DNA of 63,327 nucleotides, filler included, from an uncultured Methanosarcinales archaeon (lineage in GTDB: Archaea; Nanobdellota; Nanobdellia; Woesearchaeales; UBA12501), in assembly GCA_964397315.1 (NCBI GenBank). It is 3 parts of 3 records of this genome, joined end to end, with 100 filler letters (N's around TTAATTAATTAA, not from the genome) between each part and the next. Parts side by side here need not be neighbours in the genome. Positions count along the whole stretch, not along the records: positions 49,104 to 63,327 come from CAYNHV010000029.1; 2 more parts are not named here. The stretch is one strand, 5' to 3'. Numbering within the stretch: the first letter of the stretch is position 1; each line of letters starts with the position of its first letter. Under the pieces are notes generated by a model that had not been told where the DNA came from, ran no database searches, and saw only the letters and a list, made by a program, of their open reading frames with translations. Position numbers and translations under genes: made by a program. This document shows, in pieces, positions 48,954 through 53,083 of this stretch.

Positions 48954-49156
48954 GTCAAACAAAAATATAGTTGAGCGGCTACCACCGGTGGAACACCGGA
49001 TGGNNNNNNNNNNNNNNNNNNNNNNNNNNNNNNNNNNNNNNNNNNNNTTAATTAATTAANNNNNNNNNNNNNNNNNNNNNNNNNNNNNNNNNNNNNNNNN
49101 NNNATGCCATCCGGTGTTCCACCGGTGGTAGCCGCTCAACTATATTTTTGTTTGAC
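48954..49156. repeat. Perfect 50-bp inverted repeat flanking the second assembly gap
   Basis: 48954-49003 is the exact reverse complement of 49107-49156. Confidence 0.85.
49004..49103. other. Assembly gap with artificial TTAATTAATTAA spacer
   Basis: N-run with a six-frame stop spacer. Confidence 0.97.
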
Positions 49157-49204: not shown

Positions 49205-51457
49205 TTAATGGTCATAGTCATCATTAAGAACTCTATGGATGTCCTCTGCCTTTTTCTTTCCTATCTTTTCAACGCTCTGCATCTCTTCAGGAGACGCGTT
49301 TATCACATTCCTTACAGAACCCATGCTTTTTAGCATGGGCCTTGCCAGCGTAGATCCCACCCCTGGGAGGGAGGATATTATGTATTCCTGCTGCTCTTTG
49401 AGAGTTAGATGCTTTTTTTCATTGTGCACGCTGAATCCTTTCCCTGTCTCCTCCTGTTCCCTTTTGGCAATAACAGCAAGCAGGCTGGCGGTTTCCCTGA
49501 AATCCCTTGTCTGCAGAACAGGGACTCCATAACTTACTGCCACTGTAGCGAGCATACCCCTTACTGCATTAGGGTGCACATTTCTTTGTGAGTAGATGTC
49601 TTCCTGGCCTTCAACTATAAGAACTGGCTTTTCATAATTACTCTTGAGGGCTCTCACCTGCTGAAGAAGCCTTCCGTCTACTATGGAATCCACAAAGTCA
49701 GGCACTCTCTTGTATTCCGCAGCGCACCTGCCTGACAGGACAAAATCCCCTGTCTCAAGCCTCTTTAAGCTGATGTTCACCCCCCTATCCACAAGCTCCC
49801 TCATGACTCCGCTTCCCTTCTCCCTGTCATCCGCGAAAATCCTTATGGTTTCGCTCTCCTCCTGGCCATCATCTTTTGCTGCCTTTTTCCCAAAAAAGCT
49901 GTCCAGGCGGTTCTCATTTTCCTCTCTTTTCTCTTCTATATTGTTCATCAGGAATTTCTTCTTCAGGTCCTTGAGCGTGACTTCCATCCTTTTTTCCTTG
50001 TGGAAAGCGCTCCACCTGTATCCCTCGTCTCTTGTCCCTTTTGCAAAGAGCACATACACCTTTCCCTTCTCAAGCCTTCCTGTCCTTCCCTTTCTTTGTA
50101 TGTGCCTTATGGCAGAGGGTATTGGCTCGTAGAATATTACTACATCCACTTTAGGGATGTCCAGTCCCTCCTCTGCAACTGATGTTGCCACCATAACATT
50201 GAATCCTCCTGAGGAAAACTCTTCAATAAGCTCTTTCTGCTTCTTCTGGCTCATCCCTGTTGTTCCCTTTTTGGCCTGGCCGAAGAAGGTTTTTGCCCTT
50301 ATTCCCTTAATGCTGCTGAGTTTCTCCTCTATCTTTGAGGCTGAATCCCTGAACTGAGTGAAGATGAGCAGTTTTACGCCGGCAGCATTCTCTTTTTCAG
50401 CTATCCTTTTCAGCTCCTCCAGCTTGGGGTGCTCCACGCCTGCCTCATAAAGGCTTTTTGCTTTTATGAATGCTGATTTAAAATTAGCGTCAGCAGCAAG
50501 ATTCTTTACTGCTTTGGTGGATGTTTTTACAGAGCTTTCAATGATGCCTTCCATGTACCTGTGCAGGGATGTTATGCCCTGTGTCTCCAGCAGCTCAAGC
50601 GCGTGCTGCACTTTCATTGCTTCTGCAGCAAGAGATATGGATTTCAGAATGCTGAAGTCCTTGTTGCCTTTTGAGACTTCTGAATGGAGCTCTCCCTGAA
50701 GCCGGAGCAGGTCTGTCTTCCCTATAAACCTTCTTTTTTTCTCGTTAAGGAAGCCGTGCTTGTTTATCTCTTTTATCTTTGAGTTAAATGACTCATTGAG
50801 GTATTTTTGCACAGCCCTGAAAGAATGCGGGAGGCTGACCTCAACCCAGTTTATTTTGACATCCTGTATGTAAGGCTTAACATCAGGATCCTTCTGGGAG
50901 CGTATCTCCACATCATCAATATACAGGTTTGAGCACACCTCATTGATCTTTTCAAGCTCTGATCCCGGGCTGGCAGTAAGCCCCAGTATCCGGGGGTATT
51001 TTGCTTTCTTTTTGTATTGTTTTGCAATAAAAGCGTATGAATAATCCCCCACTGCCCTGTGGGCCTCGTCAAAAACAAGCAGGGACACATCCTCAAGGGA
51101 TATTCTTCCTGAGATCATGTCATTCTCAAGCCCCTGGGGTGTTGAGAAGATGATTTTTGACCTGCTCCAGAGCTCCTGCCTTTTCTGGGGGCTTACAAAG
51201 CCTGTAAAAACAGCCATGCTTCCCTCGTCAATGCATGTGTGCTTCAGGAAAGAGCTTTTGTGCTGCTCTGCCAGCGGCCTGGTCGGAGCCAATACCAGCA
51301 CTTTTGATTTGGGAAAATGCTTCAGCCTGTGCATTGAAAGCATCAGGGCTATGCTTGTCTTTCCCATGCCTGTGGGCAGGACAACAAGGGTGTTCTCTTT
51401 TATGCAGGTGTCAAGGATGGTCTCCTGGTAAAGCCTTGGCTTAAAATTTCTGAGCAT
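49205..51457 (-). CDS. hef: Hef helicase-nuclease (DEAH helicase + ERCC4 nuclease + HhH)
   Basis: LPTGMGKT, DEAH, TASPG, ATSVAEEGLDIP, QRKGRTGR, ADDRE, GDF...EYK, LPGVG. Confidence 0.95.
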   Translation of the reverse strand: MLRNFKPRLYQETILDTCIKENTLVVLPTGMGKTSIALMLSMHRLKHFPKSKVLVLAPTRPLAEQHKSSFLKHTCIDEGSMAVFTGFVSPQKRQELWSRSKIIFSTPQGLENDMISGRISLEDVSLLVFDEAHRAVGDYSYAFIAKQYKKKAKYPRILGLTASPGSELEKINEVCSNLYIDDVEIRSQKDPDVKPYIQDVKINWVEVSLPHSFRAVQKYLNESFNSKIKEINKHGFLNEKKRRFIGKTDLLRLQGELHSEVSKGNKDFSILKSISLAAEAMKVQHALELLETQGITSLHRYMEGIIESSVKTSTKAVKNLAADANFKSAFIKAKSLYEAGVEHPKLEELKRIAEKENAAGVKLLIFTQFRDSASKIEEKLSSIKGIRAKTFFGQAKKGTTGMSQKKQKELIEEFSSGGFNVMVATSVAEEGLDIPKVDVVIFYEPIPSAIRHIQRKGRTGRLEKGKVYVLFAKGTRDEGYRWSAFHKEKRMEVTLKDLKKKFLMNNIEEKREENENRLDSFFGKKAAKDDGQEESETIRIFADDREKGSGVMRELVDRGVNISLKRLETGDFVLSGRCAAEYKRVPDFVDSIVDGRLLQQVRALKSNYEKPVLIVEGQEDIYSQRNVHPNAVRGMLATVAVSYGVPVLQTRDFRETASLLAVIAKREQEETGKGFSVHNEKKHLTLKEQQEYIISSLPGVGSTLARPMLKSMGSVRNVINASPEEMQSVEKIGKKKAEDIHRVLNDDYDH

Positions 51458-51523
51458 AAATAAAAATAAGATATTATCGTTTAAATATTTTTTCGGTGTT
51501 CATGTCCAGTGGGGAGTGGAAAT

Positions 51524-51531
51524 ATTTATAT
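51524..51531 (+). promoter_or_regulatory. TATA box for the aroF leader transcript
   Basis: TTTATATA-type box about 25-30 nt before ATG 51557. Confidence 0.55.
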
Positions 51532-51556
51532 ATCAGATGTTCTTTCCCCTCAGGTT

Positions 51557-51634
51557 ATGAAAGCGCTGGCAGGCTCAAAAAAAGGAGTTTCTGCTAGCTT
51601 GAGAACCGGATTCTCATTTTACTTTTTTTGGTAG
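51557..51634 (+). CDS. Putative leader peptide 1: MKALAGSKKGVSASLRTGFSFYFFW
   Basis: 25-codon ORF ending F-S-F-Y-F-F-W-stop, upstream of DAHP synthase. Confidence 0.6.
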   Translation: MKALAGSKKGVSASLRTGFSFYFFW

Positions 51635-51777
51635 TTGCCTTGCTTGGCTTAGCTGAGTAAGGGCAATGCATGACCCCTCTGCTTGGCTAAGTTCTAAGGT
51701 TTGGCTTGAATCCGGTATTAAACAGCACTAAAGACAGGAGACTCAAATACTATGCAAAGCATTAAGGAGGCCGGAAA

Positions 51778-51918
51778 ATGGAAAGCAAAAAAATGAAACC
51801 TGGAGCATTAAAGCAGCAGAGAGGAATTACAGCAAACGTCAGCGGTTCAAGTGGCAGTCATTCGTGTTATCGCAATCAATATTTTTTTTGGCAGTCAAAA
51901 ATCTTTGGAGGTGCCTGA
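51778..51918 (+). CDS. Putative leader peptide 2, 46 aa, containing YFFW
   Basis: GGAGG SD; MESKKMKPGALKQQRGITANVSGSSGSHSCYRNQYFFWQSKIFGGA; stop 1 nt before the aroF ATG. Confidence 0.55.
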   Translation: MESKKMKPGALKQQRGITANVSGSSGSHSCYRNQYFFWQSKIFGGA

Positions 51919-51919
51919 A

Positions 51920-53083
51920 ATGATAATAAAGATGATGGAGAAAGCAACGGAACAAGAGGCGAGAGATGTTATTAAGCAGATAAAAGAGCTGGGTTATGCA
52001 GCTAACATAAGCGGTGAAAGCAGGAGGATTATAGGGATTATAGGAAACACAGGCAGCATTGATCCTGATGTATTCACCAGGCTGGATGGTGTTGATGATG
52101 TGGAGACTATCACCGAGAAGTACAAGCTGGTGAACAGGAAGTTCCATCCTAATCCGAGGCATATTCCACTAAACGGCTCATACATAGGAGAGGGACAGCC
52201 GAAGGTAATCATAGCAGGACCCTGCTCTGTTGAGGGCCTTGATATCATGCTGGAGACAGGAGATGCAGTGAGAGATGCAGGGGCTCATGCCTTCAGGGCG
52301 GGAGCTTACAAGCCCAGGACAGCAATCATGGACTTCCAGGGTTACGGCCTTCTGGGGCTTCAGCGCCTGGACAAGGTAAGAGAAAGAACCGGCCTGCCGA
52401 TCGTGACAGAAGCCACAGGCTCCCACCATCATGTGGTTGCTGATGTTAATGGAGAGATACCAGAGGAGGTAACAGATGACATGATTGCAGTCTCCAAGGA
52501 TGACAGATCCCTGCCTTATTTCATGGCTCAGGGAAGGTACGGGAGAAGTGAGTGTTTTGAAACAGAATCATCTGTCACCCATGTCAACAGGCACGCTGAT
52601 GTCCTGCAGGTGGGAACCAGAAATGCTCAGGCGTATGGGACGCTGCAAACAATAGCGGCGACCACAAGGGAAAGTGAGAATCCCGGAAAGAGCCAGCCTG
52701 TGCTGTTGAAGAGAGGAATGTCCTCCACACTGAAGGAGATGGTAAACTGCGCTGAATATATAGCCTCCTTTGGCAATCCCAATGTGATTCTTTGCTTGAG
52801 AGGAACCCAGCCTGCAAAAGAAGGGCTTAGGAACAATCCAGACTATGATCAGATTCCTATGTTGAGAGAGATGACTAACCTTCCAATAGTTTTTGACCCC
52901 AGCCACGCTTACGGAAGGAGGGATTACGTGCCTGCCGGAGCCAAGGCAGCACTGGATCACGGGGCAGACGGGCTGTTAATAGAGGCTCATGTGAATCCTG
53001 CAAAGGCATTGACTGACGGGCGCCAGACAATAAGCCCCATGGAGCTGGAGAAGATTGTAAAAACTGCAGAGGCTTACAGGTGA
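51920..53083 (+). CDS. aroF: DAHP synthase type I-beta with N-terminal ferredoxin-like regulatory domain
   Basis: IAGPCSVE, GAYKPRT, LQVGTRN, PVLLKRG, DPSH, GLLIEAH..P..ALTD; ATG after GGAGGTG. Confidence 0.92.
   Translation: MIIKMMEKATEQEARDVIKQIKELGYAANISGESRRIIGIIGNTGSIDPDVFTRLDGVDDVETITEKYKLVNRKFHPNPRHIPLNGSYIGEGQPKVIIAGPCSVEGLDIMLETGDAVRDAGAHAFRAGAYKPRTAIMDFQGYGLLGLQRLDKVRERTGLPIVTEATGSHHHVVADVNGEIPEEVTDDMIAVSKDDRSLPYFMAQGRYGRSECFETESSVTHVNRHADVLQVGTRNAQAYGTLQTIAATTRESENPGKSQPVLLKRGMSSTLKEMVNCAEYIASFGNPNVILCLRGTQPAKEGLRNNPDYDQIPMLREMTNLPIVFDPSHAYGRRDYVPAGAKAALDHGADGLLIEAHVNPAKALTDGRQTISPMELEKIVKTAEAYR

Follow-up and report, generated by a model that had tools for sequence, protein, structure and literature searches.

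A candidate ribosome-read sensor of aromatic amino acid supply ahead of an archaeal DAHP synthase gene

The leader and its surroundings

The DNA analysed here, which we call the window, is a stretch of 63,327 nucleotides (nt) joined from contigs of one genome (G000), that of a Woesearchaeales (DPANN) archaeon; the genome assembly comprises 61 contigs that total 1.47 Mb, at 93% completeness. Coordinates refer to the whole joined window, in which positions 1-27912 are contig C19 and the region of interest lies on contig C29. This region, 51557-51919, is the leader of a DAHP synthase gene and holds two short upstream open reading frames (uORF1 and uORF2), each with a cluster of codons for aromatic amino acids. 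The anatomy of the leader, its conservation, its association with DAHP synthase and its competing folds lead us to propose, with a probability of about 0.5, that it is a two-stage, ribosome-read sensor of aromatic supply that controls DAHP synthase, in which we infer the stalling of ribosomes, the order of folding and a factor-dependent output. The features of the locus are as follows.

49205-51457, minus strand: Hef-like helicase-nuclease gene (ERCC4 and DEAD)
51525-51532, plus strand: TATA-like box TTTATATA, recognised from sequence, 24 nt 5' of the uORF1 ATG
51557-51634, plus strand: uORF1, 25 codons, MKALAGSKKGVSASLRTGFSFYFFW, with stop codon TAG at 51632-51634
51611-51631, plus strand: aromatic sensor tail of uORF1, TTC TCA TTT TAC TTT TTT TGG (F S F Y F F W)
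51778-51918, plus strand: uORF2, 46 codons, with GGAGG at 51766-51770 and stop codon TGA at 51916-51918
51907-51913, plus strand: Shine-Dalgarno (SD) sequence of DAHP synthase, GGAGGTG, recognised from sequence, inside the end of uORF2
51920-53083, plus strand: DAHP synthase with an N-terminal ferredoxin-like regulatory domain, the putative regulated gene (PF00793, 2.3e-51; PF18152, 9.8e-15)

The leader region is flanked by the Hef-like and DAHP synthase genes, which are transcribed divergently. As expected of a leader peptide, codons for the end products of the pathway stand 5' of DAHP synthase, as F-S-F-Y-F-F-W at the end of uORF1 and as Y-F-F-W in uORF2 (51880-51891). Within uORF1, TAC TTT TTT TGG TAG gives a run of seven Ts (T7, 51623-51629); within uORF2, TAT TTT TTT TGG gives a run of eight (T8, 51882-51889). 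The stop codon of uORF2 lies 1 nt before the DAHP synthase ATG. The remaining shikimate pathway is encoded in G000, where a single cluster on a different contig holds the genes for chorismate synthase, EPSP synthase and prephenate dehydratase; the organism thus does possess the pathway whose entry step DAHP synthase catalyses. Contigs from four DNA runs were compared with the locus: X1-X3 are identical to it, X4 is a partial relative, and 0 variants were seen.

Conservation in close relatives

The leader DNA was searched against 401 genomes of the order. It matched G001 (E 1.4e-19) and G028, a member of another family (E 1.5e-13); the other matches among these genomes were short, had E above 5e-4 and were not significant. 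Two genomes of the same genus, G002 and G003, were found by protein search, and a pattern scan of the species collection, which returned six loci of which four are true, added G007. A pattern scan of metagenomes returned 61 loci, of which just one, L072, is a true leader and matches G002 without a difference over 460 nt; the others are chance matches. uORF1 and the pairings described below (H1, P1 and 2:3) are all kept in G002, G001, G007 and G028; G003 is without uORF1 and keeps uORF2. The uORF1 peptides of the four relatives are these.

G002: MKTLANSSTGVSASPKAGIYYFFM, ending AGIYYFFM
G001: MKSLADSNTGNPASLKTGFYYYFFW, ending TGFYYYFFW
G007: ...DFASPKTGFYYFFW, ending TGFYYFFW
G028: MKMASGAKKEVSASQKTGYFYFFW, ending TGYFYFFW

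In G001 and G007 the leader stands ahead of a DAHP synthase only about 30% identical to that of the window. One leader thus precedes two types of DAHP synthase and is therefore tied to function and not to one gene lineage. We note that the public record of G028 is titled uncultured Methanosarcinales archaeon; its taxonomy is that of the order of its Woesearchaeota relatives, with which it has the leader in common, and the title is probably a mislabel.

All five close leaders (G000, G002, G001, G007 and G028) carry TTTATATA 23-24 nt ahead of the uORF1 ATG, and in none of the five does an SD sequence precede uORF1. Judged by the usual archaeal distance from TATA box to start, this spacing would place the transcript start at the ATG or within a few bases of it, which makes uORF1 probably leaderless. 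Just 5' of the TATA box, at 51502-51519, lies ATGTCCAGTGGGGAGTGG, with counterparts in G002 (ATGTCCAGTGGGTAGTG), G001 (ATGTCCAGTGTACAGTG) and G007 (ATGTCCAGTGGTCCACTG); it is not kept in G028. This candidate transcription-factor site may be common to the leader and the divergent Hef-like gene. Elsewhere in the window, a run of N at about 48990-49060 is read as X in the ORFs of both strands.

Counterparts of uORF2 end in ...QLYFWQSAKIVGGR (G003), ...CFFGQ (G002), ...YRFFW (G007), ...FSQYRWQ (G028) and ...HLFGWQ (G001), and the longest T run in uORF2 is 8 in G000, 5 in G003, 7 in G002, 7 in G007, 4 in G028 and 5 in G001. The uORF2 of G002 (L003, minus strand, about 2700-2662) ends early, with ...CFFGQ and T7; its -1 frame would give F-F-W and a TGA that overlaps the start codon of DAHP synthase, as is seen in the window. 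The T7 is the same in two assemblies, which points to a real 1-nt homopolymer difference or a slippage site. Frameshifting on the U-runs was considered for uORF1 and rejected: the -1 and +1 frames after the run are open for widely differing lengths among the relatives.

Competing pairings in the leader

Six elements make up the pairings of the leader, two of them being the arms of one long-range helix (P1). H1 joins regions 1 and 2, and a second helix joins region 2 to region 3.

51565-51598, plus strand: hairpin inside uORF1, GCTGGCAGGCTC / GTTTCTGCTAGC (RNAalifold columns 29-40 with 60-71)
51605-51613, plus strand: 5' arm of P1, ACCGGATTC, uORF1 codons 17-19 (T17-G18-F19)
51618-51635, plus strand: small hairpin TTTACT / GGTAGT, whose loop is the U-run (RNAalifold columns 91-96 with 103-108)
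51635-51666, plus strand: hairpin H1 (regions 1:2), TTGCCTTGCTTGGC (51635-51648) / GCTGAGTAAGGGCAA (51652-51666), from the first base past the uORF1 stop
51643-51698, plus strand: helix 2:3, 51643-51663 with 51677-51698, RNAalifold consensus, 21 pairs
51708-51716, plus strand: 3' arm of P1, GAATCCGGT, the exact reverse complement of ACCGGATTC

A preliminary description of this DNA had drawn attention to the 9-nt complementarity of 51605-51613 and 51708-51716, which is exact, and to the hairpin right past the uORF1 stop, which does begin at the first base (51635). It had also counted a word that recurs three times; GCTTGGCT does recur, with two exact copies (51642 and 51681) and two more that have one mismatch (51647 and 51699), and the count of three was wrong. 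It missed the helix 2:3 that competes with H1; nor did it see that uORF1 is likely to be leaderless or how widely the architecture is distributed. H1 and 2:3 both use region 2 and are therefore mutually exclusive.

In an alignment of the five close leaders, RNAalifold keeps P1, picks 2:3 over H1 and adds the small U-loop hairpin. The bases of P1 pair in 93% of cells, with one A-U replaced by G-C through a double change in G002 and a single G-U in G001, and the helix is shorter in G028. H1 is paired in 90.3% of cells; 2:3 in 95.1%, with double changes at one pair in two sequences; the small U-loop hairpin in 90%, with two pairs changed on both sides; and the uORF1-internal hairpin, which is kept mainly within the genus, in 72.7%. 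As a control for P1, H1 and 2:3, sliding the partners by 1-3 columns leaves 22-51% of cells paired. The duplex of region 2 with downstream sequence gives z scores of -2.3 (G000), -3.2 (G002) and -1.95 (G007). Shuffling the 316-nt stretch yields a perfect 9-nt inverted repeat 285 times in 2000, so that the repeat alone is not significant, and the whole leader (51555-51925) folds no better than its shuffles (z +0.29). These features stand above chance because they are kept in the relatives and because the same architecture recurs with unrelated sequence across the order, as described below.

The effect of ribosome position was modelled by folding the leaders of G000, G002, G007 and G028, cut just past the uORF2 start, with 30 nt blocked. 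In the free state the fold of minimum free energy (MFE) consists of P1, 2:3 and the small U-loop hairpin in all four leaders. A 30-nt block around an A-site on Tyr abolishes P1, and a block around Trp or the stop codon abolishes region 1; 2:3 persists in both. In this comparison, a check that the preliminary description had proposed, the position of the ribosome therefore switches the predicted fold; the free minimum is 2:3 with P1 and not H1. Mutually exclusive pairings set by ribosome position, one mark of an attenuator, are thus found in H1/2:3 and in the footprint folds, with covariation that does not go beyond shuffles. The other mark, an intrinsic 3:4 terminator with its U run, is not found at the locus: as the preliminary description had said, there is no classic hairpin-plus-T terminator in 51400-52000 (0 sites; mean of 0.5 in shuffles), and none of the five close leaders has a T run after H1 or after P1. 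Pairing of the next ribosome-binding site (RBS) with the H1 5' arm, with the tail or with region 3, an anti-Shine-Dalgarno role, was considered and is unsupported.

Recurrence of the architecture across the order

PF18152, the regulatory domain of the DAHP synthase, was found in 67 of the 401 sampled genomes, a tally that includes three unpublished genomes. We assembled 74 upstream regions, 60 from this search and 14 that were already part of the analysis; G147, G222 and G386 (the unpublished genomes), two regions near contig ends and three weak places were left out. An ORF was assigned to the class if it starts with ATG, has 8-70 residues and has at least four F/Y/W among its last seven residues. 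Such an aromatic-tailed ORF lies in 34 of the 74 regions, a count that includes kin (several rows come from one genus and are not independent), as against 1 of 74 in the reverse complement and a mean of 1.1, with a maximum of 4, in shuffles. At a threshold of at least five F/Y/W, 29 regions qualify, with 0 in the reverse complement and 0.2 in shuffles. The 34 regions give 35 leaders, one of them giving two. Tails include FYFYFW, SFYYFSY, FYFFGYYF, FFYYYFQ and FYYFFW, and G036, from outside the 74-region set, has ...SSYFYYFM.

A TATA-like octamer lies 19-28 nt 5' of the ATG in 28 of the 35 leaders, compared with 44 of 605 (7.3%) for all ATGs of the same regions; of the seven leaders that lack one, at least two come from regions truncated at the ATG. 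This spacing suggests that the class ORFs are leaderless. They have 15-53 codons, mostly 20-27, and most members of the class have a single uORF, 66-360 nt from the gene. A hairpin begins no more than 3 nt past the stop codon in 30 of 34 class leaders, and the post-stop hairpins have a mean z of -2.0 against dinucleotide shuffles, with 17 of 34 below -2. They are unrelated in sequence and therefore give stronger support than the five-sequence alignment. In G117 the leader precedes a chorismate mutase-DAHP synthase pair (PF01817, 1.2e-19). A cmscan search of 51300-52100 against Rfam, with E values up to 10 allowed, returned four matches; all lie far below gathering scores, and none is to a leader or riboswitch family. 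As far as comparative sequence evidence can speak to it, the four relatives and the contrast of 34 of 74 with 1 of 74 support the central idea of the preliminary description, an attenuation read by ribosomes through aromatic sensor codons and alternative pairings.

In three genomes a small ORF with no Pfam match intervenes between the aromatic leader and DAHP synthase, namely in G001 (160 residues; L033, 1724-2206), G264 (84 residues; L152, 58-312, minus strand) and G081 (101 residues; L157, 58-363, minus strand).

An isoleucine-type sibling and a motif after the hairpin

G000 was scanned genome-wide for short ORFs with TATA spacing and a one-sided tail. No other aromatic-type leader with TATA spacing was found in G000; besides uORF1, the scan gave MASGKISRASVLSIILIAIIIL, an ORF with an Ile/Leu-rich tail on contig C35 (L193, 1592-1735), which has a hairpin directly past its stop codon, followed by CGCGCATTGTTAAAAAAC, and is probably leaderless by the same spacing. 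The element is kept in G003 (L199, about 1470-1640; ...SILSISLIAIII) and in G007 (L198, minus strand; ...CIISISLIAIIL), with the position of the hairpin and the motif that follows it as in G000. The G003 leader precedes an HMGL-like, homocitrate-synthase-like gene (isopropylmalate/citramalate synthase family), and in G000 and G007 the next ORF, of about 129 residues, has no Pfam match.

The aromatic and Ile-type leaders have in common the motif CAYYRTY, which occurs no more than 18 nt past the post-stop hairpin in 9 of 34 aromatic leaders, with 0.3 expected. It often reads CATTGTT or CATCGTT, frequently with C-rich bases before it and T- or A-rich bases after it (for example in L141-L192; in the window, 51667-51676). 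A stem-loop with CA behind it is reminiscent of the sites cut by CPSF73-type nucleases. We considered CATYGTT as a general 3'-end signal of G000 and rejected it: of its 368 occurrences, 72 lie behind a hairpin, and nearly all are inside coding sequence.

A motif common to leaders for different amino acids might be taken to mark a platform independent of the amino acid, and the N-terminal G-V-S-A-S of uORF1 is also kept among the close relatives. Both would fit a leader that involves no sensing by ribosomes at all, being instead a protein- or ligand-binding RNA, or a set of uORFs that encode micropeptides with hydrophobic aromatic tails. We consider this most improbable. The residues of the tail fit the pathway, with F/Y/W ahead of DAHP synthase and chorismate mutase and Ile/Leu ahead of the HMGL-like synthase, and the peptides otherwise diverge freely. 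The tail always abuts the stop codon and the hairpin, a geometry that is relevant to a ribosome and not to a peptide, and even at E up to 10 the Rfam search returned no match to such an RNA.

U-tracts in the sensor codons

The preliminary description had also proposed that the U-tracts of the Phe codons are themselves the termination signal, and that a stalled ribosome masks the tract or a site for aCPSF1/FttA. Both tracts, T7 and T8, are real and arise from TTT TTT TGG as it had stated. TAC TTT TTT TGG TA is identical in nucleotide sequence, synonymous sites included, in four of the five close leaders, and the uORF1s of this subfamily have T6-T7 in 5 of 5. Of the marks of an archaeal terminator, a tract of at least four U is thus present (T7 and T8), and so is a gene for the termination factor, a KH/beta-CASP protein universal in archaea (TIGR03675, 871.7 bits against a cut-off of 580.2; G000:C6:12586-14463); according to PMC8716108, aCPSF1/FttA binds U-tracts through its KH domains. 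Sense T-runs are moreover depleted in G000 genes: relative to a synonymous shuffle of ORFs of at least 200 residues, T6 or longer occurs at 0.80, T7 or longer at 0.67 (z -3.8) and T8 or longer at 0.36, with A-runs at 1.27 (A6 or longer) and 1.00 (A7 or longer). Ordinary G000 genes use TTT for 43% of Phe residues and TTTTTT for 218 of 1206 FF pairs, which makes two T-flanked TTTTTT pairs mildly unusual.

Across the class, however, the tract is not conserved. The longest T run in the tail of the 35 leaders is 4 in 14 of them, 5 in 7, 6 in 5, 7 in 8 and 8 in 1, so that only 14 reach T6 and as many have no more than T4. The tails of G018, G036 and G005 use TTC or alternate F with Y, and the longest run in the G028 uORF2 is T4. 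Phe is encoded by TTT 87 times and TTC 41 times in the tails, and Tyr by TAT 60 times and TAC 20 times, in regions that average 37% G+C. The 30 FF pairs of the tails are TTTTTT in 13, TTC TTT in 11, TTT TTC in 4 and TTC TTC in 2; these counts show no selection for TTTTTT, 13.9 being expected from the tails' own codon use. The tails are rich in U because Phe is UUY and Tyr is UAY in AT-rich genomes. There are also 66 runs of T7 or longer inside G000 ORFs of at least 200 residues, in addition to the 218 TTTTTT pairs, and such runs therefore do not preclude full-length expression. A T5 or longer tract lies no more than 20 nt past H1 in 6 of 21 leaders whose tail falls short of T6 and in 0 of 14 with T6 or longer; this contrast (one-sided Fisher p 0.033, with kin that are not independent) is a weak hint in favour of the proposal.

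The timing of events also argues against it. Intrinsic termination would set in with the polymerase still on the tract, at which point the leading ribosome would be some nine or more codons behind. A ribosome stalled further back would lose its coupling to the polymerase and, if anything, promote termination, the opposite of what a biosynthetic gene needs. Intrinsic termination would precede the arrival of the ribosome on the tract, and only the version in which a factor is masked therefore remains. That version, with the ribosome hiding an aCPSF1 binding site, may hold for this subfamily. In the end, we concluded that T7 and T8 are mainly a by-product of TTT Phe codons and not a conserved terminator; as an account of the leader, the U-tract proposal as a whole appears very unlikely.

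A proposed two-stage mechanism

We suggest instead that the sensor acts through the competing folds. In stage 1 the transcript would start at the uORF1 ATG, and the first ribosome would read 25 codons to F-S-F-Y-F-F-W-stop. If charged Phe-, Tyr- or Trp-tRNA is scarce, this ribosome would stall on the uORF1 tail, with its footprint over the P1 5' arm, over region 1 (the half of H1 nearer the 5' end) or over both, while regions 2 and 3 are made. With region 1 covered, region 2 would pair with region 3, and on departure of the ribosome P1 would close the 112-nt domain as one long stem, with the untranslated spacer fully paired. If supply is good, the ribosome would terminate and leave early, H1 (1:2) would form first, and region 3 and the 3' arm of P1 (about 60 nt, U-rich) would be left single-stranded; the exposed RNA might then let FttA/aCPSF1, or decay, end the transcript before uORF2. 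Steric competition between a termination factor and a coupled ribosome has been proposed for archaea (PMC11616081). In stage 2 a ribosome stalled on Y-F-F-W of uORF2 would open the start region of DAHP synthase and so act as a translational gate.

Predicted openness of the DAHP synthase start bears on this second stage. With a ribosome on the W codon of the G000 uORF2, the openness of the SD rises from 0.64 to 0.96 and that of the AUG from 0.32 to 0.54; with a ribosome on the uORF2 tail of G003, the SD rises from 0.07 to 0.52 and the AUG from 0.05 to 0.69. The erm leaders, in which the start region opens upon a stall, are a model for control of this kind. The output step could indeed equally be purely translational. 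Carried to the whole leader, this alternative holds that transcription is constitutive, that uORF1 and the domain set the flow of ribosomes to uORF2, and that DAHP synthase is translated by reinitiation or from a start opened by the stall. The predicted opening in G000 and G003 agrees with it, as do the stop codon of uORF2 1 nt before the ATG with the SD inside uORF2 (a layout that G003 repeats), the lack of any terminator-like element between uORF1 and the gene at the locus, and a mycobacterial precedent in which an RBS is unmasked (10.1101/834739). Most members of the class, however, have a single uORF at the distance from the gene given above, and in G028 the SD would lie within the footprint of a ribosome on the W codon. 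With the folding results that follow, which count against it as well, we regard a purely translational leader as somewhat unlikely.

Several results weigh against the two-stage sensor. Some of them bear on ribosome access, and it is these that the translational alternative has to face too: a ribosome on the uORF2 tail does not open the start region in G002, G028 and G007, where the openness of SD and AUG shows no consistent change; the openness of the uORF2 SD shows no consistent change under a uORF1 footprint in the four leaders folded; and in 34 leaders neither the tail nor the H1 5' arm is complementary to the next RBS (mean z about 0). Others concern the pairings. The preliminary description had looked to covariation for confirmation; the pairings are kept, but their covariation is not above shuffles (167 of 500 and 79 of 500 reach it, with five sequences), and sequence conservation alone could keep them. 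The MFE fold of the free leader is already 2:3 with P1, and H1 must therefore be a kinetic, co-transcriptional state. As a rule for the class we rejected the 2:3 switch, which is significant in only 7 of 34 leaders (mean z -0.3). In many members of the class H1 is followed instead by a CA-plus-U-rich patch, with T at about 50% from +6 to +10, and this patch is absent at the window locus.

A bolder version is that these are the first archaeal leader-peptide attenuators, acting via FttA/aCPSF1 instead of a terminator hairpin. The U-rich aromatic codons, the stop-abutting hairpin and the CA-plus-U-rich patch, or an exposed region 3, would together be the entry and cleavage site of FttA/aCPSF1, and a hungry ribosome on the tail would hide or refold that site, a logic like that of tna and Rho with a CPSF73 homologue in the part of the factor. 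The same design would be reused in the Ile-rich leader before the citramalate/isopropylmalate-synthase-like gene, as a ribosome-directed regulon of DPANN archaea. We judge this version unlikely as it stands.

Comparison with known systems

Leader-peptide attenuation is a textbook bacterial mechanism. Archaea also couple transcription to translation, and their polymerase terminates unlike the bacterial one, which raises the question of how a ribosome could steer the polymerase or a termination factor. A compact architecture that precedes 34 of 74 DAHP synthase genes in one DPANN order, and that has an Ile-type sibling, makes the question testable. It would also mean that genome-reduced, uncultured symbionts retain fine metabolic control over the few biosynthetic pathways left to them. 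In the literature searched we found no report of leader-peptide attenuation in archaea, the matches being bacterial or general, and the works consulted on archaeal coupling and termination are silent on attenuation; reports elsewhere are possible.

Like trpL and pheL of Escherichia coli, the leader places a run of end-product codons in a short ORF before a biosynthetic gene and has exclusive hairpins, 1:2 against 2:3, with the choice set, as we propose here, by the position of the ribosome. Unlike them, it belongs to an archaeal host, has an archaeal TATA promoter and a uORF that is probably leaderless, carries its sensor codons at the very end of the ORF with the first hairpin right past the stop codon, and adds a second sensor uORF coupled to the gene. 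It also has no 3:4 hairpin-plus-U terminator and no Rfam leader match, and we therefore describe it as attenuator-like and outside the described families. In the tnaC leader of the E. coli tryptophanase operon, the ribosome at the end of the leader ORF hides a Rho entry site beside the stop codon; the stall there is caused by free tryptophan acting on the nascent peptide and not by hunger. This is a precedent for the masking idea of the preliminary description, with Rho and not FttA as the factor. For archaeal terminators, U-tracts of at least four U are a recognised aCPSF1 (FttA) signal (PMC8716108; PMC11616081), and neither paper mentions attenuation. The known tracts lie at the ends of genes or operons or inside operons, whereas those of this leader are embedded in translated codons.

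In function, the nearest analogue is aroR of Corynebacterium glutamicum, a leader peptide with Phe-Tyr-Phe before aroF, which encodes DAHP synthase (Neshat et al. 2014, as summarised in PMC11802643). The enzyme regulated would be the same and the putative sensor is likewise mixed aromatic (F-Y-F-F-W here), but aroR is, in that account, a bacterial attenuator with an intrinsic terminator, of which the present locus, in another domain of life, has none. In architecture the closest system is that of the mycobacterial leaderless polycysteine small ORFs (10.1101/834739). There a stalled ribosome unmasks the next RBS, an effect that our folds predict for uORF2 of G000 and G003 and not for uORF1. As in that mycobacterial "ribulon", a first-cistron small ORF, probably leaderless in our case, carries a run of codons specific for an amino acid, and the same design recurs across pathways and loci.

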